From the IMG/VR virus record IMGVR_UViG_2802429241_000009: a stretch of DNA of 39,485 nt. One strand, given 5' to 3'. Both the position numbers and the translations under genes were made by a program. Origin of the DNA: a virus. Taxonomy: Duplodnaviria > Heunggongvirae > Uroviricota > Caudoviricetes. Shown here piece after piece: positions 1-39,485 of the stretch (positions within the stretch are counted from its first letter, which is position 1; each line of letters begins with the position of its first letter). The notes beneath the pieces were generated by a model. That model was not told the origin of the DNA, made no database searches, and was given only the letters and a program-made list of their open reading frames with translations.

Positions 1-1251
1 GTGCTTACCGATACAAAATTAAAAAACCTCAAGCCGCAGGACAAACTGTACAAGGTCTCCGATCGTGACGGGCTGTATGTAGCTGTGCTTACGTCAGGCA
101 CGGTCTCGTTTCGTTATGACTACCGTATCAACGGTCGCCGCGAAACACTGGTAATCGGGCAGTATGGGCGTGACGGTATCAGCCTGGCAGAAGCGCGAGA
201 AGAACTGATTGCTGCAAAGAAGCTGCTTAAAGCAGGCCAGTCGCCGGCTGCGGCTAAACGTGACGGTATCAAAAAGATTCGTGGTGCCGAGACGTTTGCG
301 GTACATACCGACAGTTATATGAAACACGTCATCCTGGCTGACAGTACCCGCGCAATGAAGCAGGCGGTGATCGACCGTGACATACTTCCGGTTCTTGGCA
401 ACAAAATGATGGCTGAAATTACCACATCGATGGTTCGTGATTTGTGTGACCGGATTGTCGAACGCGGTGGTCGGGCAACAGCAGTACAGGCCAGGGAGAT
501 CATCAGCAGCGTATACCGTCACGCCAATGACCGTGGTCATGGTTTGTTTAATCCTGCGGCTGACATTAAACCTTCGTCTATCGCCATATTTAAACCACGA
601 GAGCGAACACTGACACCAGAAGAAATTGGCCTGTTCTTCCGCACGTTGGATGCCATTGGTGCTATGGGCACTATGAAAATGGCTTTAAAACTGGTGCTTA
701 TCACTATGGTTCGTAAGGGCGAATTCGCCAATGCAACGTGGGATGAAATAGATTTTAAAAAATGGACATGGACAATTCCTTCAGACCGCATGAAGGGAAG
801 CCGGGCGCATGTTATTTACCTGCCTAAACAGGCTCAGGATATATTGGTCGGGTTGCAGATGTGCGCTGGTGGAAGTGAATATCTGGTTCCTGGTCGTTAC
901 AATTTCAGGAAGCCATTATCTAATGCCGCGCTGAACTCTCTGATCGACAGAACGGTGAAAATAATAAACGAAGATGGTGAGCATATTCAGGACTTCACTG
1001 TACATGATATGCGCCGTACAGCCAGTACGTTGTTGCATGAGGCTGGTTATCCTTCAGACTGGATTGAAAAGGCTCTGGCACATGAGCAGAAAGGTGTGCG
1101 CGCCGTATATAACAAAGCGGAATACGCCAGACAGCGCGCCTACATGTTGCAGCAGTGGGCCGATATGATTGATTCCTGGATTAACGGGGAGCATACGGAT
1201 CTGATTCCGTTCTCCCCGTCGAAGTTTGAGAAGTGGATGGCGGGGGAATAA
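1..1251 (+). CDS. int: Tyrosine-type phage integrase; GTG start at window position 1, so the true 5' end may lie upstream
   Basis: 416-aa ORF; C-terminal HDMRRTAST...LAHEQKGVRAVYNKAEY resembles the tyrosine recombinase catalytic region (R..H..R..Y); N-terminus typical of prophage integrases. Confidence 0.9.
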   Translation: MLTDTKLKNLKPQDKLYKVSDRDGLYVAVLTSGTVSFRYDYRINGRRETLVIGQYGRDGISLAEAREELIAAKKLLKAGQSPAAAKRDGIKKIRGAETFAVHTDSYMKHVILADSTRAMKQAVIDRDILPVLGNKMMAEITTSMVRDLCDRIVERGGRATAVQAREIISSVYRHANDRGHGLFNPAADIKPSSIAIFKPRERTLTPEEIGLFFRTLDAIGAMGTMKMALKLVLITMVRKGEFANATWDEIDFKKWTWTIPSDRMKGSRAHVIYLPKQAQDILVGLQMCAGGSEYLVPGRYNFRKPLSNAALNSLIDRTVKIINEDGEHIQDFTVHDMRRTASTLLHEAGYPSDWIEKALAHEQKGVRAVYNKAEYARQRAYMLQQWADMIDSWINGEHTDLIPFSPSKFEKWMAGE

Positions 1252-2795: not shown

Positions 2796-3677
2796 TTACA
2801 TAGATGTTTCGTTTAATTCTTCCCGACGAACGCTGTAAACGTCGGTGGCTTTTGCCAGCAGTTCGTCATCATCTGAAAGTTTTTGTGCAATGTATTTGTA
2901 AGCCTTATCCAGTTCGGAGACAGTGCTGTAATTCATCGCTGCGCTGGTAAAGGCCATCAGCATTTCTTCTGGCTCACGGCTATCCGCTTTACGCGTTTGC
3001 TCATCAGGCTTTTTCACTGATTTAGCGTTGATCAGACTGTTCATTCCCGCAGCCGTAGTCATTTGCGGAGTAATGTCTCGCTCAACGCGCGGTGCCGTTT
3101 CCTGTAATTCGTCAGGGGTGTAAACACCAAGAAGTACATCAGGAGCGTGCAGGCGAGCCCATCGTTTCGTGCAAAGATAGGCAAGTTGCTGGCGCGGATC
3201 CTGTTCCCACAATGGAGAGTTACGCACTCCGGCTTGCGCCATACTGATGGTAAGCTCACGTGGTTCTGCTTCTCCTTTAAGGACTGCTGACACAGTTACC
3301 GTCAGATTCGGTGATTTATCTGTTTTGCCGTTAACATTCGACCAGTCACCGCTCCAGCGATAATTCAGGCGTGTCGCTAGCAGGCTGGAAGAGGATACGA
3401 CCGCGTTTACCAACTGTGCTTCGTAGCCTAACGTTCCGTTTACCACATGCGTTTTCTGCGCCACGGCGAAAGGGTTCATTCCCCACTGTGCCGCCTGCAT
3501 GGTCACCGCCAGGCAATCGGCAGGTTTGCCTTCAAGATGTTTCGGTACAGTCACTTTGCTTTGTGACATCAACTCAGCGAAACGCACCAGTTGATTCATG
3601 CCCTCGGAGCTGAAGATTGCCGCAGCAGTGCCTACAGTTGTGCCTGGTTGTGATGTGATTGCGATATCATTGCTCAT
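2796..3677 (-). CDS. RecT/Red-beta family single-strand annealing protein
   Basis: 293 aa; segment PRVERDITP resembles the ERQPERDITPV region of lambda Bet as recalled; start overlaps the exonuclease stop (ATGA). Confidence 0.75.
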   Translation of the reverse strand: MSNDIAITSQPGTTVGTAAAIFSSEGMNQLVRFAELMSQSKVTVPKHLEGKPADCLAVTMQAAQWGMNPFAVAQKTHVVNGTLGYEAQLVNAVVSSSSLLATRLNYRWSGDWSNVNGKTDKSPNLTVTVSAVLKGEAEPRELTISMAQAGVRNSPLWEQDPRQQLAYLCTKRWARLHAPDVLLGVYTPDELQETAPRVERDITPQMTTAAGMNSLINAKSVKKPDEQTRKADSREPEEMLMAFTSAAMNYSTVSELDKAYKYIAQKLSDDDELLAKATDVYSVRREELNETSM

Positions 3678-4965: not shown

Positions 4966-4980
4966 TTACCGTTGAGGTAA
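4966..4980. promoter_or_regulatory. Operator-like palindrome TTACC-N5-GGTAA (left operator region, downstream of PL-like promoter)
   Basis: Exact 5+5 inverted repeat; an extra TTACC half-site at 4953..4957; 62 bp from the site at 5028. Confidence 0.55.
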
Positions 4981-5008
4981 TGATTATGCGTATCTGGTTT
5001 GGTGTCAA
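4981..5008 (-). promoter_or_regulatory. PL-like promoter candidate for the leftward early operon
   Basis: Perfect -35 TTGACA on the minus strand (plus-strand 5003..5008); weak -10 candidates (TAATCA at 16-bp spacing or CATAAT at 14 bp); bracketed by operator sites. Confidence 0.4.
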
Positions 5009-5027
5009 TAGATATGAGTTAAAAAAA

Positions 5028-5042
5028 TTACCCATAAGGTAA
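5028..5042. promoter_or_regulatory. Operator-like palindrome TTACC-N5-GGTAA (left operator region, upstream of PL-like -35)
   Basis: Exact inverted repeat between the repressor terminator and the TTGACA -35. Confidence 0.55.
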
Positions 5043-5052
5043 TCACATAGGC

Positions 5053-5077
5053 AATAAAAAAGCCGCCAGAAGGCGGC
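5053..5077 (-). terminator. Intrinsic terminator downstream of the repressor gene
   Basis: Minus-strand hairpin GCCGCC-TTCT-GGCGGC followed by TTTTTTATT. Confidence 0.75.
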
Positions 5078-5099
5078 TTACTTACTGAAAAGTATGATT

Positions 5100-5684
5100 T
5101 TATTGTTTGTTTTTTTCGTTCTGGTTGATGACAAATTCAATGTAACTTTCGATCTTTGCTTTCTCGGTTTCGGGTAACAATGCGTAGCGCGAGCGATCAT
5201 AGTTGATGGTCGCAGGGTCGTGCGGGTGAATCAGTAATTCATAGCCGTGACGCCCGAATGCGGATGCAACATTCTCCAGGGTGGAAATGGAAACGCTGAC
5301 CTCATTGTTTAACAGGCGGCTGATTGTCACCTGGGCGACGCCGGATGCGCGGTGTAGTTTTCCCTGCGTTGAAAGGTCGCGGCTTTCGCTCATCCAGCGT
5401 TCCAGGTTGTGAGCCGCCAGCTGACCAATGTCGCTAGGGCCGACAGGCTGAAAACCTTCCTGAGAAAGCGAGCGATCGATATCAAGCCAGTTACGGGGTT
5501 TATTGGCGGCAGCTTCAATTTTTCGCGCAACCTGGTCGCCGATAACCTTCTTGCCAAGAGCCCAGCGGTTTACCAGATTTGCCTGAGTTCCAAGTTTTTC
5601 AGCCATCCGCGTCTGAACACCATTGAATTCACGGTCGATCAAGTCGTTGAGATTTTGCCTGCGGACGTCCTGGATACTTTTCAT
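5100..5684 (-). CDS. Prophage repressor candidate (CI-like position, two HTH-like segments, no visible autocleavage module)
   Basis: 194 aa, divergent from the Cro-like gene; followed by an intrinsic terminator; no Ala-Gly/Cys-Gly plus Ser-Lys peptidase module recognised by eye. Confidence 0.65.
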   Translation of the reverse strand: MKSIQDVRRQNLNDLIDREFNGVQTRMAEKLGTQANLVNRWALGKKVIGDQVARKIEAAANKPRNWLDIDRSLSQEGFQPVGPSDIGQLAAHNLERWMSESRDLSTQGKLHRASGVAQVTISRLLNNEVSVSISTLENVASAFGRHGYELLIHPHDPATINYDRSRYALLPETEKAKIESYIEFVINQNEKNKQ

Positions 5685-5739
5685 TTTCTGGAAAATCGCC
5701 TCATATATGAATCAGTAGATGATTCAATTTAAAGCAATA

Positions 5740-5754
5740 TTACCCAACAGGTAA
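5740..5754. promoter_or_regulatory. Operator-like palindrome TTACC-N5-GGTAA (immunity region site 1)
   Basis: Exact inverted repeat between the divergent repressor and Cro-like genes. Confidence 0.6.
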
Positions 5755-5756
5755 AT

Positions 5757-5771
5757 GCACCCCATAGGTAA
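5757..5771. promoter_or_regulatory. Operator-like variant GCACC-N5-GGTAA (immunity region site 2)
   Basis: One half-site degenerate; 17 bp centre-to-centre from site 1. Confidence 0.4.
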
Positions 5772-5784
5772 CTATCCTTGATTT

Positions 5785-5813
5785 TTGTTACCTTATGGGT
5801 GAATATTTATTAT
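5785..5813 (+). promoter_or_regulatory. PR-like sigma70 promoter candidate for the Cro-like gene
   Basis: -35 TTGTTA (5785..5790), 17-bp spacer, -10 TATTAT (5808..5813); operator variant overlaps the -35. Confidence 0.5.
5788..5802. promoter_or_regulatory. Operator-like variant TTACC-N5-GGTGA (immunity region site 3), overlapping the PR-like -35
   Basis: One mismatch in the right half; overlaps TTGTTA -35 and spacer. Confidence 0.45.
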
Positions 5814-5838
5814 CTGAAATAAATATCAGGCAATAGCT

Positions 5839-6069
5839 ATGAGCGATAACGGACATTTCGATTTCAAAAAGCACTGGCTTGCACTTACTCCGGATGAGCG
5901 TGAAGCCTTCGCACAGGAAGCCGGAACGACGAGTCACTATATCCAGACTCACTTAACAGGTAAGCGCAAAATGCCAGGTAAGGTATTGATGAATGGGCTT
6001 TTTAAAGCCTGTAAAACAAGACAATGGCTGCGCTCAAAAGCAGAACTGGCATACTTCTTCTACTCATGA
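5839..6069 (+). CDS. Cro-like small HTH regulator
   Basis: 76 aa, divergent from the repressor across the operator cluster; LALTPDEREAFAQEAGTTSHYIQTHLTGKRKMP HTH-like segment. Confidence 0.65.
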   Translation: MSDNGHFDFKKHWLALTPDEREAFAQEAGTTSHYIQTHLTGKRKMPGKVLMNGLFKACKTRQWLRSKAELAYFFYS

Positions 6070-6090
6070 TATCCAGCCACAACCATCTGT

Positions 6091-6118
6091 AGACCGCCAT
6101 CCGGCGGTCTTTTCATAT
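6091..6118 (+). terminator. Intrinsic terminator downstream of the Cro-like gene (tR1-like position)
   Basis: AGACCGCC-ATCC-GGCGGTCT followed by TTTTCATATCT. Confidence 0.6.
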
Positions 6119-6124
6119 CTATTC

Positions 6125-6139
6125 GCACCTTAAAGGTAA
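6125..6139. promoter_or_regulatory. Operator-like variant GCACC-N5-GGTAA downstream of the Cro terminator
   Basis: Same variant as at 5757; followed by ATATGGTT. Confidence 0.3.
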
Positions 6140-6217
6140 TAAAAAACCAAATATGGTTGATCAAATTTTCCAATTGTGCAAAATAGCCAATATCAATAAC
6201 AAAAAGGGGCGGAAAAA

Positions 6218-8020: not shown

Positions 8021-8035
8021 TTACCTGCCAGGTAA
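8021..8035. promoter_or_regulatory. Operator-like palindrome TTACC-N5-GGTAA (upstream member of a pair)
   Basis: Exact; 62 bp from the site at 8083, the same spacing as in the left operator region. Confidence 0.55.
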
Positions 8036-8054: not shown

Positions 8055-8083
8055 TTGATTTCGTGTCTTATGTGGTTTTTAAT
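8055..8083 (+). promoter_or_regulatory. Sigma70-like promoter candidate upstream of the gene at 8101
   Basis: -35 TTGATT, 17-bp spacer containing TTATGTGGTT, -10 TTTAAT; bracketed by operator sites 62 bp apart. Confidence 0.4.
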
Positions 8084-8097
8084 TACCTTAGAGGTAA
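8083..8097. promoter_or_regulatory. Operator-like palindrome TTACC-N5-GGTAA (downstream member, ends 4 nt before the ATG at 8101)
   Basis: Exact; overlaps the candidate -10 TTTAAT. Confidence 0.55.
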
Positions 8098-11387: not shown

Positions 11388-11419
11388 GGTACTATTACCA
11401 CAACGGTAACTATTACCAC
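11388..11419 (+). repeat. Tandem direct repeat GGTA(A)CTATTACCAC x2 between the terminator and the terminase small subunit start
   Basis: 14/15-bp units at 11388..11401 and 11405..11419; each contains the TTACC half-site, and the second forms GGTAA-CTA-TTACC. Confidence 0.5.
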
Positions 11420-11426
11420 GGTGGTT

Positions 11427-12023
11427 ATGATGCCTGCTGAACCTAAAACCTATAAACGCAAATCAACGCAATTTAAGCCGCTCACAGCAATGCAGGAGGC
11501 TTATTGCCAGTCATACATCAAAACGCCTGAAAACCAGACTCAGGCAGCGATTAACGCAGGATTCTCCCCAAATACAGCGGCAGTTAAAGCCAGTGTCATG
11601 ATGCGCGATGAACGCATTCAAAAACGGATTGCCGAGTTGATGGAGGAGCGCAACAAACGAATGCGCGTCAGTGCTGATTACGTTCTCATGCGCCTGGTGG
11701 AGATCGACCAGATGGACGTGATCGATATCCTCAACGACGATGGGAGCCTTAAACCAATCCGTGAGTGGCCGAAAATCTGGCGCACTACGCTTAGTGGCTT
11801 TGATCTGTCATCGACCATCATGAACATGAACGAGGATTCGATAGAGACAATCCTCAAAAAAATTAAATGGCCTGACAAGGTGAAGAACCTCGAACTGATT
11901 GGTAAGCACGTCGACGTCAACGCATTCAAAGAACGCCTGGATGTTAATGTGAATGTGACAATTGCTGATCGCATAGCGGCAGCCAGGAAGCGACTCAAAG
12001 AACGTCAGGATGGTAATCAGTGA
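11427..12023 (+). CDS. Terminase small subunit
   Basis: Immediately upstream of and overlapping the large terminase gene; start at ATG-ATG after GGTGG (upstream TTG start would cross a terminator hairpin). Confidence 0.65.
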   Translation: MMPAEPKTYKRKSTQFKPLTAMQEAYCQSYIKTPENQTQAAINAGFSPNTAAVKASVMMRDERIQKRIAELMEERNKRMRVSADYVLMRLVEIDQMDVIDILNDDGSLKPIREWPKIWRTTLSGFDLSSTIMNMNEDSIETILKKIKWPDKVKNLELIGKHVDVNAFKERLDVNVNVTIADRIAAARKRLKERQDGNQ

Positions 12024-13648: not shown

Positions 13649-13811
13649 GAACTGGAAGCGATGAGTTATGCCTTCCGTGGCTGTACGGGTTTACAGCATG
13701 AAGTCATCGCAATGGCGTCCTGCTGTAAAAAGGGTGGTGATAGTCCTTCAAGGGAAACCATCACCGCCAAGCACCTGGAACTTCTGGCATCACGGTCCTT
13801 AGGCGTGATTC

Positions 13812-13888
13812 TGGCGTGGCATGCAGGATTCGAACCTGCGACCAACCGCTTAGAAGGCGGTTGCTCTGTCCGACTGAGCTAATGCCAC
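13812..13888 (-). tRNA. tRNA-Arg (anticodon UCU), phage-borne
   Basis: 77 nt with full cloverleaf: 7-bp acceptor GTGGCAT/ATGCCAC, D-stem GCTC/GAGC, anticodon stem ACCGC/GCGGT with loop CTTCTAA, T-arm GCAGG-TTCGAAT-CCTGC, encoded CCA; close to E. coli argU as recalled. Confidence 0.85.
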
Positions 13889-14210: not shown

Positions 14211-14225
14211 TTACCTTAAAGGTAA
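14211..14225. promoter_or_regulatory. Operator-like palindrome TTACC-N5-GGTAA upstream of the portal-proximal genes
   Basis: Exact; in the noncoding region between the tRNA and the structural genes. Confidence 0.5.
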
Positions 14226-31051: not shown

Positions 31052-31074
31052 AAAAAAAGCCCGCAGCGCTGGCT
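31052..31074 (-). terminator. Intrinsic terminator at the 3' end of the 179-aa membrane protein gene
   Basis: Minus-strand imperfect hairpin overlapping the stop codon followed by TTTTTTTG. Confidence 0.5.
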
Positions 31075-31613
31075 TACCAAAACTTGTACCACGGGGATTT
31101 ATCCTTCAATGGGCAATCCTTCCATCGTGTGGCCAACCATTCATATTCTTTAAAATATGTGTTTATGTTTTCTTTTTCTCTAATGGCTTGTATAAGAGGT
31201 AGCGCAATCTGATAGTTATTTACAACGGAGCTGTAAAATACTTCCTTAATCATGGTCTCATCATAAGTTTTCCGCTTCACGCTCACAGCCATGCGTTCGT
31301 AGAAACCTAGACAGTAAATTATTTCTCTCTTCTCTGTCTTTTCTTCATCCGTAAGATCAGCCTGCCCATTGCTTGGATACATATAAGAGCGGAATGATTT
31401 GTTCGATTCGTGAATGCGGCGCATAGTAGATAGGCCTTTCTTATAATCTACATCAAACCTGCTTTCACCAAGGAATACTGAAGTGTGTACTTTTCTCGCT
31501 GTATTTACATTATAAATAATAGTAGCGATAGCTATGAACAAGCCAAGCGAAACCGCGACTGCACTTACGATTTGAGCCACAGCCATGGCAAATTGCATTT
31601 CTTCACTTAACAC
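31074..31613 (-). CDS. Membrane-anchored hypothetical protein (179 aa), AT-rich gene; candidate superinfection-exclusion or defence protein
   Basis: GTG start after GGAGA; N-terminal TM (AMAVAQIVSAVAVSLGLFIAIATIIY); visibly lower GC than neighbours; hairpin/U-run structures at both ends. Confidence 0.55.
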   Translation of the reverse strand: MLSEEMQFAMAVAQIVSAVAVSLGLFIAIATIIYNVNTARKVHTSVFLGESRFDVDYKKGLSTMRRIHESNKSFRSYMYPSNGQADLTDEEKTEKREIIYCLGFYERMAVSVKRKTYDETMIKEVFYSSVVNNYQIALPLIQAIREKENINTYFKEYEWLATRWKDCPLKDKSPWYKFW

Positions 31614-31630
31614 AAACTGTCTCCAGACAT

Positions 31631-31653
31631 GAAAACGGGGCCTAATGGCCCCG
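31631..31653 (-). terminator. Hairpin plus short U-run between the antirepressor gene and the 179-aa gene (terminator or attenuator)
   Basis: Minus-strand CGGGGCC-ATTA-GGCCCCG followed by TTTTC, ending about 20 nt before the GTG start of the 179-aa gene. Confidence 0.45.
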
Positions 31654-31822
31654 TCATTAAACTATCCGAATGTTAAACGCCTTCGTACTCGTCAAATTTT
31701 CTCATGTGGGCTCCTCCTGTATCGGTGCATAATCGCTATGGATCACCCGTGAGGTAATAGTAAGCTATTCACCTGCAATCTGTACAGAATTATTTAAAGG
31801 CACATCCCTGTGCCGCCGCTCG

Positions 31823-32509
31823 TCAGAAGAACCCTGCCTTGTCGTTGATGTACTCCGCGTGCGTCTGGATATCACGCAGGCATTTGCTCACACCGACGAT
31901 GTAGCAGAACATGGTGGTCAACTCCGCCGCCGCGCCCGATACGTCGTGCCCGTCTTCCTGTAACTGGTTCAGCAGATTCATCAGCAGTGAGTTCTCCGTC
32001 AGGCCGAGAACACCAGACGGCGAGTGAATCAGGCTGCGGTAGCCTGGCTTCAGCGGGGCGCTGTAGGTTTTGTTCTCTATCTTCATCGCCTGCATCACTG
32101 CTGACGCCGTGGCGTTGGCTACCTGGTCGGCAACCATCTTTATGCGTTCTTCCTGCGGGAGCGAGTTTTTAATGTAACTTCCGGTGCGGCGGATCTGAGG
32201 AAGAACCTCACCTGTAACCCATTTACGAAAGCGGTAGGGGATAGTGCCTGGTGTCACCGCATCGCGGCAGCGGAGGATCAGTGTGTAGAGGCCTGACTCG
32301 CTGATAATATTGGTTTCGCCTTGACGACCTAAGTTAAATTTAGCCCTTTCATCATCATCAAGAGATTTGATTGACATGGTGGGGTTTGTCAGTTGAAGAG
32401 CTTTAATAACGTCTTTGGCAACAAACCAAGGATTTCCATCAATAACAATGGCTCGAATGGTTGCTTCTGATTCAAAATGAAAAACAGATGGGGTTACGTT
32501 AGCAGTCAT
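31823..32509 (-). CDS. BRO-N domain antirepressor-like protein
   Basis: N-terminal SVFHFESEATIRAIVIDGNPWFVAKDVIKALQL resembles the BRO-N signature; AGGTG SD before the ATG; long structured leader upstream. Confidence 0.7.
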   Translation of the reverse strand: MTANVTPSVFHFESEATIRAIVIDGNPWFVAKDVIKALQLTNPTMSIKSLDDDERAKFNLGRQGETNIISESGLYTLILRCRDAVTPGTIPYRFRKWVTGEVLPQIRRTGSYIKNSLPQEERIKMVADQVANATASAVMQAMKIENKTYSAPLKPGYRSLIHSPSGVLGLTENSLLMNLLNQLQEDGHDVSGAAAELTTMFCYIVGVSKCLRDIQTHAEYINDKAGFF

Positions 32510-32667
32510 GGCAATCACCTTTTAGTATGGTTAATCACCACCTGAGGTGCAAATCTCGTTGGTGGTGAGACGTACAGGGTTTGCACTACCGGCTAAAAGG
32601 ACCCGGCGCACCTTTCGGTGCCCCTGCACGTCCCACCATAATTCTGGCATGACTGTGCTATACGCAT

Positions 32668-32690
32668 AAAAAAACCACGTCTGGCGTGGT
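32668..32690 (-). terminator. Intrinsic terminator inside the antirepressor upstream region (attenuator or 3' end of a short RNA)
   Basis: Minus-strand ACCACG-CCAGA-CGTGGT followed by TTTTTTTAT. Confidence 0.6.
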
Positions 32691-32750
32691 ATGCGCCTTT
32701 TAGTAATCCGGGGTGCAAATCCCGGCACTGGATTTTGCCAGTGCTCGATT

Positions 32751-32780: not shown

Positions 32781-32795
32781 TTACCGCAAAGGTAA
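32781..32795. promoter_or_regulatory. Operator-like palindrome TTACC-N5-GGTAA adjacent to a candidate leftward promoter of the antirepressor leader
   Basis: Exact; abuts the candidate -35 (TTTACA on the minus strand). Confidence 0.5.
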
Positions 32796-32873
32796 TGATA
32801 AACGCTGATAAATATAAAAATCAACCGTATTTGGTTGATTGCGTTTAACGCTTGATCACCTGAAAGCAAGATA

Positions 32874-32888
32874 TTACCTTTAAGGTAA
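32874..32888. promoter_or_regulatory. Operator-like palindrome TTACC-N5-GGTAA just upstream of the zinc-ribbon protein gene
   Basis: Exact; overlaps the alternative ATG at 32888. Confidence 0.5.
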
Positions 32889-32908: not shown

Positions 32909-33637
32909 ATGGAAGTTTTCTGGATAGTTGTTGGTGTGGTTGCGGTGATTATTTACGTTATCAACCAGAACAAGACTAAGATCTCTGATCGTACGGTCGT
33001 TAATCATAACAAAACGATAAAGACCGAAGATGGGGAGATAACGATTAATCGTACACAGGTGATAGAACACACCTCTACTCAGTTTCAAAAAACTGGAGGT
33101 AATGCGCCTAATATTTCCGCACCTCCTGCTTATGATAGTGCGGTAATCCAGACATATTATAAACAGCAGGAGTTAGCAAAAGAGAGGCAACTGATTCAGC
33201 CAAAGCCGTTTACAGCTGAGCTTCCACCTGGAGTGTCAACGCGTCCGGCATATCATGGAAGATTCCCTGGTGATGACATATCGTCTCAGTCATCTAAAAA
33301 AGCACCTCAGGCAGTATCAGAGCCAGCAAGAATACCTTCTGTATCGCCGCCAAAAGAAGAATCAGCTAACAGAGTTTCAAGTGGTAGCAAGCAGTGCTTG
33401 CGATGCAGAATAAACCTTCCATATGAAAAATTCAGGAAATCGTCAAAAAATCCAGATGGATTGACTAAGTGGTGTGCAAGGTGTCTCGATGGCCCAAAGA
33501 ATACACGCCATATGAAGTGGTGCCCAATTTGTAATGTCCGCAGAAAACGAACCAGTTTTTACCCTAATAATCAAAATGCGGATGGCTTAATGGCATGGTG
33601 CAAAACGTGCTGGGACGAGCACAAAGCGAAACGATAG
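32909..33637 (+). CDS. Membrane-anchored protein with a tandem C-terminal zinc-ribbon-like repeat
   Basis: N-terminal TM (VFWIVVGVVAVIIYVI); Ser/Pro-rich linker; two repeats of C-x2-C-x(17-20)-DGL-x3-WC-x2-C; ATG at 32888 is an alternative start. Confidence 0.55.
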   Translation: MEVFWIVVGVVAVIIYVINQNKTKISDRTVVNHNKTIKTEDGEITINRTQVIEHTSTQFQKTGGNAPNISAPPAYDSAVIQTYYKQQELAKERQLIQPKPFTAELPPGVSTRPAYHGRFPGDDISSQSSKKAPQAVSEPARIPSVSPPKEESANRVSSGSKQCLRCRINLPYEKFRKSSKNPDGLTKWCARCLDGPKNTRHMKWCPICNVRRKRTSFYPNNQNADGLMAWCKTCWDEHKAKR

Positions 33638-33660
33638 GCCGCTCTTGCGGCCTTTTCTTT
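33637..33660 (+). terminator. Intrinsic terminator after the zinc-ribbon protein gene, between convergent genes
   Basis: GGCCGC-TCTT-GCGGCC followed by TTTTCTTT. Confidence 0.65.
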
Positions 33661-33916
33661 ATGTGGTTTGTTTTCGTAGTTGTTCGGCACAATAGTCGAG
33701 ATGTGTTTGCAGATCCTGCATAGACATCTGTGAGCTGGTGACGTAGTTAATCAGTGCAGTCAGTTCGGCAAGTGGGCCATCGACATTAAATCCATCCTTA
33801 TCGAGATCCCGGAGTAATTTCATCAAGTGCGATCCCTCCACCAGTGATCTGACGCCTCCCGGCGTGTGAATCCTTTCGGTAAATCCGTCTTCCAGTGGAT
33901 AGTGATACCGCTGCAT
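33659..33916 (-). CDS. Small antirepressor-domain protein (85 aa), putatively LexA-controlled
   Basis: Homologous by eye to the C-terminal about 80 aa of the BRO-N protein at 31823..32509 (shared IH.P.GV, LM.LL, DG..V.G..AELT, D.QTH..Y); GGAGAAG SD; LexA-box-like site 21 nt upstream. Confidence 0.55.
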   Translation of the reverse strand: MQRYHYPLEDGFTERIHTPGGVRSLVEGSHLMKLLRDLDKDGFNVDGPLAELTALINYVTSSQMSMQDLQTHLDYCAEQLRKQTT

Positions 33917-33935
33917 CTTATCTTCTCCATGTAAT

Positions 33936-33955
33936 AACTGTATATTTATACAGTA
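33936..33955. promoter_or_regulatory. LexA box (SOS box) candidate
   Basis: AACTGTATATTTATACAGTA: CTGT-N8-ACAG with an all-A/T spacer, 18 of 20 matches to TACTGTATATATATACAGTA as recalled; 21 nt upstream of the ATG of the minus-strand gene 33659..33916. Confidence 0.7.
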
Positions 33956-33992
33956 TCAAATAATTTGTTTGCTATCCAGCACGTTTTGCAAA

Positions 33993-34007
33993 TTACCTGA
34001 AAGGTAA
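33993..34007. promoter_or_regulatory. Operator-like palindrome TTACC-N5-GGTAA in the divergent region between the small antirepressor-domain gene and the tailspike
   Basis: Exact inverted repeat. Confidence 0.5.
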
Positions 34008-38136: not shown

Positions 38137-38321
38137 CATGGCATTTTTCATGGTACTGATTTCCGGTGACGGTATATAAAACGGTACTAGAAAAATGAAG
38201 TTTTGGAAAAACGTTATCACTCAATTGGTTATGATTGTCGTAAATAATTGAGTGGGAATAAACCCGAACACTAAATGCTGAGGTTTTCTATTCGTACGAG
38301 GCTTCAGCATATTTTGGTAAC

Positions 38322-38354
38322 AAAACCCTCTGTTCATCCACTGGAGGGTTTTTT
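38322..38354 (+). terminator. Intrinsic terminator after the lysis cassette (A-run / hairpin / T-run, potentially bidirectional)
   Basis: AAAACCCTC ... GAGGGTTTTTT with a 13-nt loop; a second hairpin at 38275..38310 precedes it. Confidence 0.65.
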
Positions 38355-38411
38355 ATGCAATTAAAAAGCCCATAATCCTCACGAATTACAGGCCTGGTAG
38401 TGGAAAGACGA

Positions 38412-38954
38412 TTAATTAAACCAACTGTCTGATTTATTCTCTTCTGCTTTACCCACGCTTTTCATCAAATCACGACCACCTTCAGTCATATTCCTGTTAG
38501 CGTCAGCTTCAGATTGTACAACATCGGTTTGCGCTGCTTTGTGTTTCAGTTCCTGATCGATAAATTCGTTCTCACGCTTAACGCGCGCTTCTTCTTTTGC
38601 CAGCGCCAGTTTTTGCTTCTGAATCTCTAAGTTGCGCAGCTCATCTTCATAACTTTGATCGCGCTTTTTATCCGCAGTGAATTCGGCGTCCCGTTTATCC
38701 TGGCGAGCTTTTTTATCCGCTGCTGCTGCTGCCGCTCTTTTATTCGCTGCGGCCTGAGCGTTTGCGCGCCGTTGCTTCTCTTGCTGGATTTCCCTGTTGC
38801 GCTCCGCAACCCATTCGTCATGCTGCCTTTGTTCTTCATTTTTGCCTTGCTGTTCAGCTTCTGCGACCGCAGAGAGTTGATCCTGTAATGAAGAGGCGAA
38901 AGCCGGGCTACTAACAGCAGCTAATATGGCGGCGCAAAGAAAAACTTTCTTCAT
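38412..38954 (-). CDS. Exported coiled-coil protein (signal peptide, Lys/Ala/Glu/Arg-rich); host flank or prophage cargo
   Basis: MKKVFLCAAILAAVSSPAFA signal peptide; charged low-complexity mature region. Confidence 0.6.
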   Translation of the reverse strand: MKKVFLCAAILAAVSSPAFASSLQDQLSAVAEAEQQGKNEEQRQHDEWVAERNREIQQEKQRRANAQAAANKRAAAAAADKKARQDKRDAEFTADKKRDQSYEDELRNLEIQKQKLALAKEEARVKRENEFIDQELKHKAAQTDVVQSEADANRNMTEGGRDLMKSVGKAEENKSDSWFN

Positions 38955-38969
38955 GAGTCCTCCTGATAG

Positions 38970-39485
38970 TTAGCTCTTTTCAGGACATTTTGTATTTGGC
39001 TGAATACGCGTTTCGTTATAAGTGGTGGTAATAACAACGGCTAAACCCGTTGTGAACTGGCATTCTTTACCCACCTGGGTGGAGGTGTACACTTTGGTGC
39101 CTTCCTTATAAGTTAAAGAGACACCTTCCACTAAGGTTTTATCATTCACCATAGTACCCGCTGCCGCGCCTACAGCTCCGCCACCAACTGCACCAGCCGT
39201 TGTTCCGGAGTTACTACCAGATCCAACGTTATGGCCGATAACGCCGCCTGCGACAGCGCCAATAAGTGCGCCAAAGGCTTGCGCATTCCGTTTATTTTGT
39301 GAGTTATCTACGGCAACTTTTGCGGGAAGAATGGAGATAATATTAACGGTTTTAGTTTCTTGCTTTGTATTCAGTTGATCGGTTTGATAGACATCGGCGG
39401 CATGGTCGTCAGCATTTGACTGGCATCCTGCCAGGGTGAATGACGCTAAAATTGCCACAGGCAGAAAACATTTTTTAAATTTCAT
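38970..39485 (-). CDS. Glycine-zipper outer-membrane lipoprotein (YcfJ-like); host flank or prophage cargo
   Basis: Lipobox LAGC; GALIGAVAGGVIGHNVGSG glycine-zipper segment resembling E. coli YcfJ as recalled; start codon is the last three bases of the window. Confidence 0.6.
   Translation of the reverse strand: MKFKKCFLPVAILASFTLAGCQSNADDHAADVYQTDQLNTKQETKTVNIISILPAKVAVDNSQNKRNAQAFGALIGAVAGGVIGHNVGSGSNSGTTAGAVGGGAVGAAAGTMVNDKTLVEGVSLTYKEGTKVYTSTQVGKECQFTTGLAVVITTTYNETRIQPNTKCPEKS

Follow-up and report, generated by a model that had tools for sequence, protein, structure and literature searches.

An SPC32H-like repressor/antirepressor immunity switch predicted in a phiV10-type coliphage, with operator motifs dispersed over the genome

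The stretch of 39,485 nucleotides analysed here, hereafter the window, appears to carry the immunity switch of a phiV10-type (Uetakevirus) temperate podophage of E. coli, phiV10/epsilon15-like, and this switch very probably works as in phage SPC32H, a reading to which we assign a probability of roughly 0.88. The repressor, Rep, would not cleave itself, and would instead be disabled by a small antirepressor, Ant, whose gene lies behind a predicted LexA box. The homologies of the two proteins, the absence of an S24 peptidase, the statistics and conservation of the operators, the LexA box and the terminators are directly seen in the DNA and its translation. Since the mechanism is the published Rep/Ant mechanism of SPC32H, where it has been solved structurally, the finding is correct but already known.

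The repressor gene rep (5100..5684, minus strand) encodes 194 residues and was identified from its open reading frame, an HTH-only Pfam profile and PDB homology. Its product is 100% identical to phiV10 gp40 and to vB_EcoP_ZX5 ORF21, and is matched over its full length by SPC32H Rep (PDB 5D50_A; phmmer E 4e-42, query 1-190 against chain 2-197), with 42% identity. Pfam matched HTH_3 in two places, the better at 106-147, and also a YdaS-type HTH (21-61), and the profile search found no Peptidase_S24 (PF00717) even at E<=1. In the AlphaFold model, which consists of helices throughout, residues 1-66 and 84-151 form domains and residues 164-193 a C-terminal helix. When this model was compared with the PDB by Foldseek, the sole strong matches were the SPC32H Rep entries 5D50 and 5D4Z, and LexA/CI C-terminal domains were absent among the fold matches. 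The C-terminal S24 domain, with its Ser/Lys dyad and cleavage site, that marks LexA/CI-type self-cleaving repressors was thus seen by neither profile, model nor fold search, and the homology to SPC32H Rep, by phmmer and Foldseek, extends over all three domains of that protein. In agreement with these results, the initial annotation had described a 194-aa repressor with HTH segments but without a recognisable peptidase module, and two of the checks that it had proposed, the S24 profile search and structure prediction, came out in its favour.

Judged from its sequence, Rep is predicted to be composed of a DNA-binding HTH at the N-terminus, an HTH-like domain for dimerisation in the middle, and a helix for tetramerisation and Ant binding at the C-terminus. 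The SPC32H homologue has the same order, DBD-MDD-tetramerisation/Ant-binding domain, and its second HTH-like domain is described as the dimerisation domain (PMC9986798, excerpt). Given this description, DNA is likely read by the N-terminal HTH of Rep alone. Across four phages the helix NLVNRW of the N-terminal part does not vary, but that of the middle domain does. The NCBIfam and PADLOC scans gave only sub-threshold matches for Rep, and the labels 'antitoxin' and 'defence control protein' were dropped; the same scans returned nothing for the Cro-like protein, Ant and the neighbouring proteins.

As had been noted before, rep has almost no Shine-Dalgarno sequence: the sole GAGG lies 14 nt before the ATG, and no usable one is present in four related genomes. 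A leaderless start at the ATG was rejected, because no -10 hexamer lies at the right distance. The candidate PRM best conserved by eye on the four-genome alignment, TTTAAA (5733..5728)-17-TCATAT (5710..5705), is weak in all four genomes, and for this reason we do not claim it. The gene is followed by an intrinsic terminator (5052..5079, minus strand; stem 5079..5060) with an 8-bp GC-rich stem and a T run (-21.1 kcal/mol, z -5.6), which is also annotated in phiV10.

Three operators precede rep. O1 (TTACCCAACAGGTAA, 5740..5754) has perfect TTACC-N5-GGTAA half-sites, invariant in the four-genome alignment. O2 (GCACCCCATAGGTAA, 5757..5771), 17 bp from O1 as in SPC32H, reads GCACC...GGTAA, with two mismatches and a degenerate left half-site; its ACC/GGTAA is kept in four genomes. 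O3 (TTACCTTATGGGTGA, 5788..5802) has one mismatch and lies inside the PR core promoter. In the four related genomes the half-sites of all three are unchanged, but the centres and flanks differ. PR (5778..5813, plus strand) may be read either as TTGATT (5778-5783)-17-GAATAT (5801-5806) or as TTGTTA (5785-5790)-17-TATTAT (5808-5813), and O3 overlaps both versions. The TTGATTTTT of PR is invariant in four genomes, and the TTGTTA/TATTAT pair is kept only in the window and Tyrion. The hexamer assignment is ambiguous, as the candidates rest on consensus matching, and promoter calls of this kind occur at chance frequency (3 found against 3.0 expected). Thus, the three operators of the initial annotation are all in place, but their motif is not confined to the switch region (it recurs at 4966, 5028, 6125 and about nine other positions); likewise, the proposed PR, TTGTTA-17-TATTAT, and its overlap with O3 were found, but the exact hexamers are uncertain and TTGATT-17-GAATAT is the better conserved.

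The divergent Cro-like gene that had been proposed is present (5839..6069, plus strand). It encodes a five-helix HTH protein of 76 aa that matches phrog_35 'transcriptional repressor' (E 5.6e-13). The best folds for its model (pLDDT 86.6) are the YdaS-N, 434 repressor and P22 c2 DNA-binding domains (TM about 0.55-0.65), and all of the fold matches are lambda-repressor-like HTH domains with weak E-values; the sequence search against the PDB gave zero matches. Its HTH, AGTTSHYIQ.HLTG, is invariant in four phages. In position, as the first PR gene and divergent from the repressor gene, in its phrog_35 membership and in its lambda-repressor-like fold, this small HTH protein is a Cro-type candidate. 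An intrinsic terminator follows (6091..6118, plus strand; stem 6091..6110; -15 kcal/mol, z -4.9), which is annotated in phiV10 and whose hairpin persists in four genomes despite base changes, so that both terminators of the initial annotation, after rep and after the Cro-like gene, were recovered. Beyond it, a motif search located a fourth rightward operator (GCACCTTAAAGGTAA, 6125-6139, plus strand), ahead of a second rightward promoter for the replication genes (6157-6184, plus strand), TTGATC (6157-6162)-16-CAAAAT (6179-6184). The right half of this operator, TTGATC and CAAAAT are kept in three of the four genomes, and in Tyrion AAAAAT follows a 17-nt spacer.

The small antirepressor gene ant (33659..33916, minus strand) encodes 85 residues. 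As in a Rep/Ant switch, its product matches the 'Anti-repressor protein' PDB 5D50_E with E 3e-47 over 84 residues; it also falls in phrog_450, and has no named family in Pfam or NCBIfam. It is 99% identical to its ZX5 counterpart and is labelled 'hypothetical' in public phiV10-type records. Its promoter, P_ant (33931..33959, minus strand), is TTGATA (33959..33954)-17-TATTAC (33936..33931), and a near-perfect predicted LexA box (CTGTATAAATATACAG, 33953..33938, minus strand; CTGTATATTTATACAG as 33938-33953) fills the 17-nt spacer, so that the LexA site overlaps the ant promoter. In the alignment this box is conserved in SPC32H and BUCT711. Further exact CTGT-N8-ACAG matches at 13681, 18223 and 35532 were taken as chance occurrences on account of their poor AT-rich centres or coding positions.

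A second antirepressor gene (31823..32518, minus strand) encodes a Bro-N domain (Pfam, 1.5e-19) and an Ant-like C-terminal domain, with matches to phrog_130 'anti-repressor Ant' and phrog_450. Residues 150-227 of the protein are 40% identical to the small Ant. Its leader contains a C4 antisense RNA-like gene (32558-32643, minus strand; Rfam RF01695, 77.8 bits against a gathering score of 45) and an isrK-like RNA gene (32668-32744, minus strand; Rfam, 67.4 bits, above the gathering score). The C4-like RNA lies 40 nt upstream of the antirepressor gene, matching the P1 immI arrangement of C4 and antirepressor in one transcription unit, and, with the RNAs and a Rep operator before it, the second antirepressor resembles the immI region of phage P1. 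The initial annotation had predicted induction through an antirepressor, with antirepressor genes elsewhere in the window. Both genes are there, and the prediction is supported by the homology of the repressor to SPC32H Rep and by the Ant homologue behind a LexA box.

The Rep-operator motif, aTTACC-N5-GGTAAt, occurs in about 15 copies in nine intergenic regions of the window. At <=1 mismatch there are 13 matches where 0.66 are expected, a number reached by 0/100 shuffles, and the exact sites are all intergenic (10/10, P about 3e-11). SPC32H, Tyrion and BUCT711, relatives from Salmonella, Enterobacter and Klebsiella, have copies in corresponding places, and a Serratia prophage carries the same motif, likewise dispersed. 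Between the repressors of these operator-sharing relatives, identity is only 42-78%. The operator half-sites gave no match in a text search of the prophage literature, the primary SPC32H and epsilon15 papers lying outside its scope.

Two of the operator pairs bracket promoters with the same spacing. The leftward early promoter PL (4966..5042, minus strand), TTGACA (5008..5003)-17-AATCAT (4985..4980), is bracketed by operators at 4966-4980 and 5028-5042, 62 bp apart centre to centre; four genomes share its -35 element and both operators. Downstream of the replication genes, operators at 8021-8035 and 8083-8097 (plus strand), also 62 bp apart, bracket the promoter TTGATT (8055-8060)-17-TTTAAT (8078-8083), a pair that recurs with equal spacing in SPC32H, Tyrion and BUCT711. 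Another pair, at 11395-11409 and 11413-11427 (plus strand), lies between a terminator and the small-terminase gene, at the start of the late operon, and is syntenic in SPC32H (12) and Tyrion (67/85). A single operator (14211..14225) occupies the non-coding gap before the portal gene, with syntenic sites in SPC32H (3175), Tyrion (3969) and BUCT711 (34570), and another, with one mismatch (31743..31757), is upstream of a DUF4760 gene. Operators at 32781-32795 and 32874-32888 flank a leftward promoter, TTGATT-18-TATCAT (32824..32795), the -10 of which abuts the first of them. The operator between ant and the tailspike gene (33993..34007) is syntenic with sites in SPC32H (20013), Tyrion (21776) and BUCT711 (16965). 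Several operators are 60-80 bp upstream of the nearest promoter-like -10, which is too far for simple occlusion. Separately, a TATGTGGTT motif, possibly a second regulatory site, is present near three operators; it is weakly enriched in the window (18 against 8.2) and not significantly so in SPC32H.

Could the 194-aa protein be something other than a repressor of the SPC32H kind? That it is a LexA/CI-type self-cleaving repressor, with a peptidase module too diverged to recognise and RecA-stimulated autocleavage, is hardly credible: nothing positive speaks for it beyond the general prevalence of such repressors among enterobacterial temperate phages, while no S24 appears at E<=1, the fold is all-helical where S24 is beta-rich, no LexA/CI C-terminal fold was matched, and the C-terminal half of Rep aligns with the solved dimerisation and tetramerisation domains of SPC32H Rep. 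Weak, sub-threshold matches to the HigA antitoxin and to YdaS-type HTH domains, together with the label 'antidote protein VapI' in the public record of BP9, would suit another XRE-family regulator or an antitoxin in place of the prophage master repressor. This seems very improbable, as such matches are far below the curated cut-offs, the ORF list has no toxin partner adjoining rep, and the gene stands in the canonical position, with the Cro-like gene diverging from it and palindromic sites in PR and PL. Moreover, both crystal structure and name identify its homologue as the SPC32H repressor, and the identical ZX5 protein blocks lytic growth: overexpression of ORF21 abolished free phage and lowered lysis-gene transcripts by >99.9% (PMC9782041, excerpt).

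With Rep taken as the SPC32H-type repressor, the identity of its main inducer and of its sites has to be weighed. The dominant inducer might be the Bro-N::Ant-like protein, which the C4/isrK RNA circuit would release (compare P1 immI and Gifsy-1 IsrK-AnrP), with the LexA-controlled Ant in a secondary role. The Bro-N protein shares homology with Ant in its Ant-like domain, has RNA regulators and a promoter of its own, the latter overlapped by a Rep operator, and is 83% identical to ZX5 ORF4, the sole antirepressor tested in this phage group (PMC9782041, excerpt). However, overexpression of ORF4 reduced lysogeny only in part (PMC9782041, excerpt), and the Rep operator in its promoter implies that the gene should fire only once Rep has already been removed. 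Furthermore, the LexA-box search found no box nearby, and the Bro-N module is absent from the gene content of SPC32H. There, as Kim and Ryu are said to have described in 2013, induction proceeds through the small LexA-controlled Ant. We thus regard the Bro-N protein as an unlikely main inducer and keep Ant in that role. We hold it similarly improbable that the TTACC-N5-GGTAA sites outside OR and OL are not Rep operators but belong to the Cro-like protein or to some other factor, or are conserved sequence next to promoters. Several of them are 60-80 bp from the nearest -10, and the Cro-like HTH, being invariant across the four phages too, could read the same sites. Nevertheless, their sequence is identical to that of the OR and OL sites and the exact copies are all intergenic; they are syntenic in four genomes and dispersed in Serratia, with half-sites kept and centres and flanks varying; and three abut a -10 hexamer exactly as at PL.

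In the SPC32H-type switch that we favour, Rep of the lysogen would bind 15-17-bp palindromes, aTTACC-N5-GGTAAt, through its N-terminal HTH, as the operator positions suggest, with O3 inside PR, an operator pair around PL and the others at or near the remaining transcription units. The rep gene would be transcribed leftward from a weak promoter adjoining O1, its translation would do without a Shine-Dalgarno sequence, and its terminator would insulate it from PL. Upon DNA damage, host LexA would be inactivated and the ant promoter freed; as in the SPC32H homologue, tetrameric Ant would then bind Rep and break up the DNA-binding tetramer. The Cro-like HTH protein would then be made from PR, and presumably it binds to the same operators as Rep and silences rep. 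The Bro-N::Ant-like protein probably reinforces commitment or acts in superinfection. In SPC32H-type phages, LexA cleavage yields Ant, which inhibits the repressor by protein-protein contact (PMC7380047, excerpt), and SPC32H Rep is a tetramer on DNA that is broken by tetrameric Ant (PMC9638917, excerpt). Binding of Rep to its operators and to Ant, as well as its non-cleavage, are carried over from this homologue, which is 42% identical.

Beyond this core, we tentatively propose, at somewhat less than even odds, that Rep is not a local switch but a genome-wide prophage silencer acting through its about 15 conserved palindromic operators and coupled with a two-tier antirepressor circuit. The silenced units may comprise the early left, early right, replication, post-replication accessory, late structural, tailspike/ant and second antirepressor units. 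The phased 62-bp operator pairs may suit one tetramer bridging two sites, and operator specificity may have persisted in phages from at least five enterobacterial genera even with repressor identities of only 42-54%. Within the circuit, the LexA-gated Ant may be the trigger, and the Bro-N::Ant-like protein, gated by a Rep operator and the C4/isrK RNAs, may serve as a feed-forward lock.

The closest known system is the SPC32H Rep/Ant antirepression system (PDB 5D50, 5D4Z), which Kim and Ryu (2013) and Kim and co-workers (2016) reportedly described, with Rep crystallised together with the antirepressor. The two phages belong to the same genus and share gene order, a three-domain Rep without S24, a close Ant with a LexA box in its promoter, the operator half-sites and an OR spacing of 17 + 30/31 bp; they differ in that the Rep proteins are 42% identical, the host here is E. 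coli, and SPC32H is without the Bro-N::Ant-like antirepressor and the C4/isrK RNAs. phiV10 and ZX5 have an identical repressor and an immunity region 98% identical in DNA; the ZX5 study, in the excerpt consulted, makes no mention of LexA or of an SPC32H Ant homologue (PMC9782041). Coliphage 186 Tum and the Gifsy/Fels-2 antirepressors follow the same logic, in which a LexA-repressed antirepressor inactivates a non-cleavable repressor (PMC7380047, excerpt), but these proteins are unrelated to Ant.

As in lambda CI/Cro, the repressor and cro genes diverge from an interval with three operators, one of which overlaps PR; on the far side of the repressor gene there is a separate PL that has operators of its own; and the repressor appears to be poorly translated. 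In contrast to lambda, the repressor here has no S24 autocleavage domain and would, like SPC32H Rep, form a tetramer, cro is immediately followed by a terminator, a second promoter serves the replication genes, and operators are also found at late and accessory units. In phage P1, the single repressor C1 acts at many operators scattered at separate transcription units, and in immI (c4-icd-ant) the antirepressor gene is preceded by the C4 antisense RNA and controlled by an operator of the main repressor. Dispersed operators and a C4-preceded, putatively Rep-operator-controlled antirepressor gene are shared with the phage studied here. However, P1 C1 is not of the XRE/HTH_3 type and reads an asymmetric 17-bp site, whereas the operators here are palindromes, and the antirepressor here is Bro-N::Ant-like, not P1 Ant1/2. 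The attP core was not found in the window.

The value of the finding lies mainly in correct annotation, in that the raw sequence re-derives a mechanism known genetically and structurally in a sister phage. This matters since phages of the phiV10 type serve as reporters and biocontrol agents for E. coli O157, and their records leave the small Ant unnamed. The dispersed, genus-wide operator set could teach something new, both about the silencing of an entire prophage by a tetrameric repressor and about why immunity specificity has remained undiversified in these phages, unlike in the lambdoid phages.

The window is essentially a complete phage genome of the phiV10 type. Over the 1.3 kb around the immunity switch, it is 97-98% identical to the Escherichia phages phiV10, vB_EcoP_ZX5 and TL-2011b and their relatives, a group that belongs to the epsilon15-like genus Uetakevirus. 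Besides the integrase gene (1..1251), whose start codon lies exactly at position 1, it carries leftward recombination genes, the immunity region, replication, terminase and structural genes, a tailspike gene and a lysis cassette. The attP core known for the phiV10 phage group is absent from the window. The final 1.3 kb (38137-39485) holds two minus-strand lipoprotein-like genes (DUF5384; glycine-zipper/TraT-like), which may be morons or flanking host DNA. Between the genes for the large terminase and the portal, a non-coding stretch of ~0.8 kb contains a tRNA-Arg (TCT; 13812-13888, minus strand), and SPC32H, a Salmonella phage, has a tRNA-Arg at the equivalent position.

The initial annotation had described the 194-aa repressor, Rep (5100..5684, minus strand), as having HTH-like segments and no visible autocleavage module, and both observations were borne out. 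Rep matched only HTH models in Pfam (a YdaS-type HTH over residues 21-61, and HTH_3 over two stretches of the protein), and Peptidase_S24 gave no match even at E<=1. In the AlphaFold model, for which 28 homologues were used, the fold is entirely helical: it comprises two HTH-like domains (residues 1-66 and 84-151) along with a long helix at the C-terminus and a disordered linker. The only strong PDB matches to this model are two crystal structures of the SPC32H repressor, 5D4Z (residues 92-198 of the repressor by itself) and 5D50 (the repressor in complex with its antirepressor), and no LexA or CI peptidase domain was found among the fold matches. The two repressors align over their full length (42% identity, E 4e-42). 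Secondary literature assigns DNA binding to the N-terminal domain of SPC32H Rep, dimerisation to the middle domain, and tetramerisation and binding of the antirepressor Ant to the C-terminal domain (PMC9986798); another paper describes a Rep tetramer that binds palindromic DNA and is broken by tetrameric Ant (PMC9638917).

The N-terminal helix NLVNRW of Rep is invariant in four phages (the window, SPC32H, Tyrion and BUCT711), whereas its counterpart in the middle domain varies. Given that the operator half-sites are also common to all four phages, the N-terminal domain probably reads the DNA. Together with the domain layout of the homologue, this means that, of the HTH-like segments, one is the DNA-binding HTH and the other an HTH-like dimerisation domain. 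Among the Rep proteins of the window and four relatives (L002, L003, L004 and L005), the recognition helix is near-invariant, reading NLVNRW or NLISRW. Rep is only 42-54% identical across the Salmonella, Klebsiella and Serratia phages, yet the operator half-sites are unchanged; the compared Rep proteins and operators show no immunity diversification of the kind typical of lambdoid phages.

Rep shares its full sequence (100% identity) with phiV10 gp40 and ORF21 of vB_EcoP_ZX5, and is thus the same protein as a repressor already tested in an E. coli phage. In ZX5, overexpression of this protein eliminated free phage, and transcripts for endolysin and holin fell by over 99.9% (PMC9782041). The near absence of a Shine-Dalgarno sequence also held: the only purine-rich run in the rep leader is GAGG, 14 nt before the ATG, and a usable Shine-Dalgarno is likewise missing from the homologous leaders of three related phages.

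Between rep and the divergent Cro-like gene lie the three proposed tandem operators, copies of the palindrome TTACC-N5-GGTAA: O1 at 5740 is perfect, O2 at 5757 reads GCACC...GGTAA, and O3 at 5788 reads TTACC...GGTGA. All three are in register in the alignment with SPC32H, Tyrion (Enterobacter) and BUCT711 (Klebsiella), spaced by 17 + 31 bp in the window and 17 + 30 bp in SPC32H. Their ACC/GGT cores do not vary among the four genomes, unlike the central 5 bp and most flanks, as should be expected of a protein-binding site.

The rightward promoter PR allows two hexamer assignments. The proposed TTGTTA-17-TATTAT (5785..5813) was found and is overlapped by O3, but promoter-scan matches in the switch region occur at chance frequency (3 found vs 3.0 expected), and among the four genomes these hexamers are kept only in the window and Tyrion. 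Immediately left of O3, TTGATTTTT is invariant, which points to an alternative PR, TTGATT (5778-5783)-17-GAATAT (5801-5806), kept in 4/4 genomes. Whichever assignment holds, O3 overlaps the core promoter.

The Cro-like ORF (76 aa; 5839..6069) encodes a protein without a Pfam match or a PDB sequence match, which falls in phrog_35, 'transcriptional repressor' (E 5.6e-13). Its model is a confident five-helix bundle (pLDDT 86.6), and the closest folds are nearly all lambda-repressor-like HTH proteins (YdaS-N, 434 repressor, P22 c2; TM ~0.55-0.65, with weak E-values). The HTH is invariant across the four phages. The label 'Cro-like' is fairly justified by position and fold, from which we infer the function. 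As proposed, terminators follow both genes: the scan found GC-rich hairpins of 8 bp, each with a T run, at 5079..5060 (minus strand, after rep) and 6091..6110 (plus strand, after the Cro-like gene). Their folding is far more stable than that of shuffled sequence, at -21.1 kcal/mol (z -5.6) for rep and -15 kcal/mol (z -4.9) for the Cro-like gene, and the phiV10 record annotates both. The Cro-like gene is a single-gene unit ended by its own terminator (region 6091-6184), after which come a conserved operator and a conserved TTGATC-16-CAAAAT promoter that restarts rightward transcription into the replication genes.

Induction through an antirepressor had been proposed from the lack of self-cleavage. 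The 85-aa ORF ant (33659..33916, minus strand) encodes a homologue of SPC32H Ant (E 3e-47, 5D50 chain E). Upstream of it is a sigma-70-like promoter, TTGATA-ctgtataaatatacagt-TATTAC, whose 17-nt spacer is a near-consensus LexA box (33938-33953); promoter and box align with their SPC32H and BUCT711 counterparts. In work by Kim & Ryu in 2013, SPC32H Rep reportedly escaped cleavage when the SOS response was active, and a variant with a LexA-box point mutation, SPC32N, is said to have been constitutively lytic. For this class of Salmonella phages, a review that cites Kim & Ryu 2013 describes LexA self-cleavage leading to Ant production and inhibition of the repressor by protein-protein contact (PMC7380047). 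The Ant homologue, its LexA-box promoter and this literature therefore support the proposal. In the vB_EcoP_ZX5 and TL-2011b records, small Ant is annotated only as 'hypothetical protein' (2089-2346 and 3063-3320, respectively), an annotation gap in public data.

The operator is not confined to the switch. In a blind count of all 5-N(0-9)-5 palindromes, TTACC-N5-GGTAA was the commonest in the window and likewise in SPC32H, with 10 exact copies in each. Allowing <=1 mismatch, 13 copies occur in the window (0.66 expected), 15 in Tyrion (0.53), 13 in BUCT711 (0.43) and 11 in 20 kb of a Serratia prophage (0.33), which encodes a Rep of 54% identity. Non-coding sequence makes up ~9% of the window and contains all 10 of its exact sites (P ~3e-11); in SPC32H, too, every exact site is non-coding (P ~2e-12). 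Nine intergenic regions of the window carry the palindrome; SPC32H, Tyrion and BUCT711 have it at corresponding places, and the Serratia prophage has the same dispersed motif. Across the four complete phage genomes, the syntenic sites comprise a pair around the leftward promoter PL (4966/5028, 62 bp apart), the triple at 5740, 5757 and 5788, a single site directly after the cro terminator (6125), pairs after the replication genes (8021/8083, 62 bp apart) and before the small terminase gene (11395/11413), and single sites before the portal gene (14211) and between ant and the tailspike gene (33993). The window also has operators at a second antirepressor gene (32781/32874) and before a DUF4760 gene (31743); each operator outside the switch is 15 bp long.

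At PL, 8083 and 32795, the final base of a -10-like hexamer is also the first base of the operator, and the -35 has another operator on its upstream side. The spacing of both promoter-bracketing pairs is kept at 62-63 bp in the four genomes. Centre to centre, the two operators of each pair lie exactly 62 bp apart in the window and in SPC32H (33604/33666 and 35972/36034) and enclose a promoter. At roughly six helical turns, the distance may reflect a single tetramer that bridges both sites. On the simplest reading, Rep would directly repress most transcription units through these candidate dispersed operators, in the manner of P1 C1, which represses through dispersed operators. Several single operators sit 60-80 bp upstream of any -10 and would need a looping or roadblock role. 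The motif TATGTGGTT occurs at 8069, 14269 and 34039; the latter two copies, upstream of a portal-side small ORF and the tailspike gene, are followed 5-6 nt later by GGTAAT, and the copy at 8069 is inside the spacer of the promoter at 8055-8083. Its enrichment is weak (18 vs 8.2 with <=1 mismatch). After the operator at 31743-31757, a 10-codon mini-ORF (MRKFDEYEGV; region 31620-31757, minus strand) with a strong ribosome-binding site precedes the DUF4760 membrane-protein gene (31074-31613).

The second antirepressor (31823..32518, minus strand) has a Bro-N domain, and its C-terminal 80 residues are 40% identical to small Ant. It is 83% identical to ZX5 ORF4 overall and identical over the C-terminal 150 residues; the ZX5 study calls ORF4 an 'anti-repressor', whose overexpression lowered prophage titres 1000-fold (PMC9782041). 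In its leader, between this gene and the next, a C4 antisense RNA (32558-32643) and an isrK-like RNA (32668-32744) lie in tandem on the minus strand, both above the Rfam gathering score. Upstream of them is a promoter-like TTGATT-18-TATCAT, whose -10 adjoins the operator at 32781-32795. In its arrangement the locus is similar to P1 immI and to Gifsy-1 isrK-anrP (PMC7380047 describes the latter). Because a Rep operator is present and a LexA box is absent, this promoter would fire only once Rep has been removed, and would then serve as a reinforcing step. Directly downstream of the operator at 32874-32888 starts a plus-strand gene (32909-33637) for a 242-aa phrog_6762 protein. Near its N-terminus is a hydrophobic stretch that, judged by eye, appears to span the membrane, and at the C-terminal end are two zinc-ribbon repeats similar to endonuclease VII or Lar-like proteins.

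The observation of a repressor without an autocleavage module is thus confirmed and its interpretation supported. What the window encodes is the Rep/Ant switch already characterised in epsilon15-like phages, and its mechanism is known; the parts that merit a further look are the operator network, which extends across the genome and the genus, and the second antirepressor with its RNA gating.
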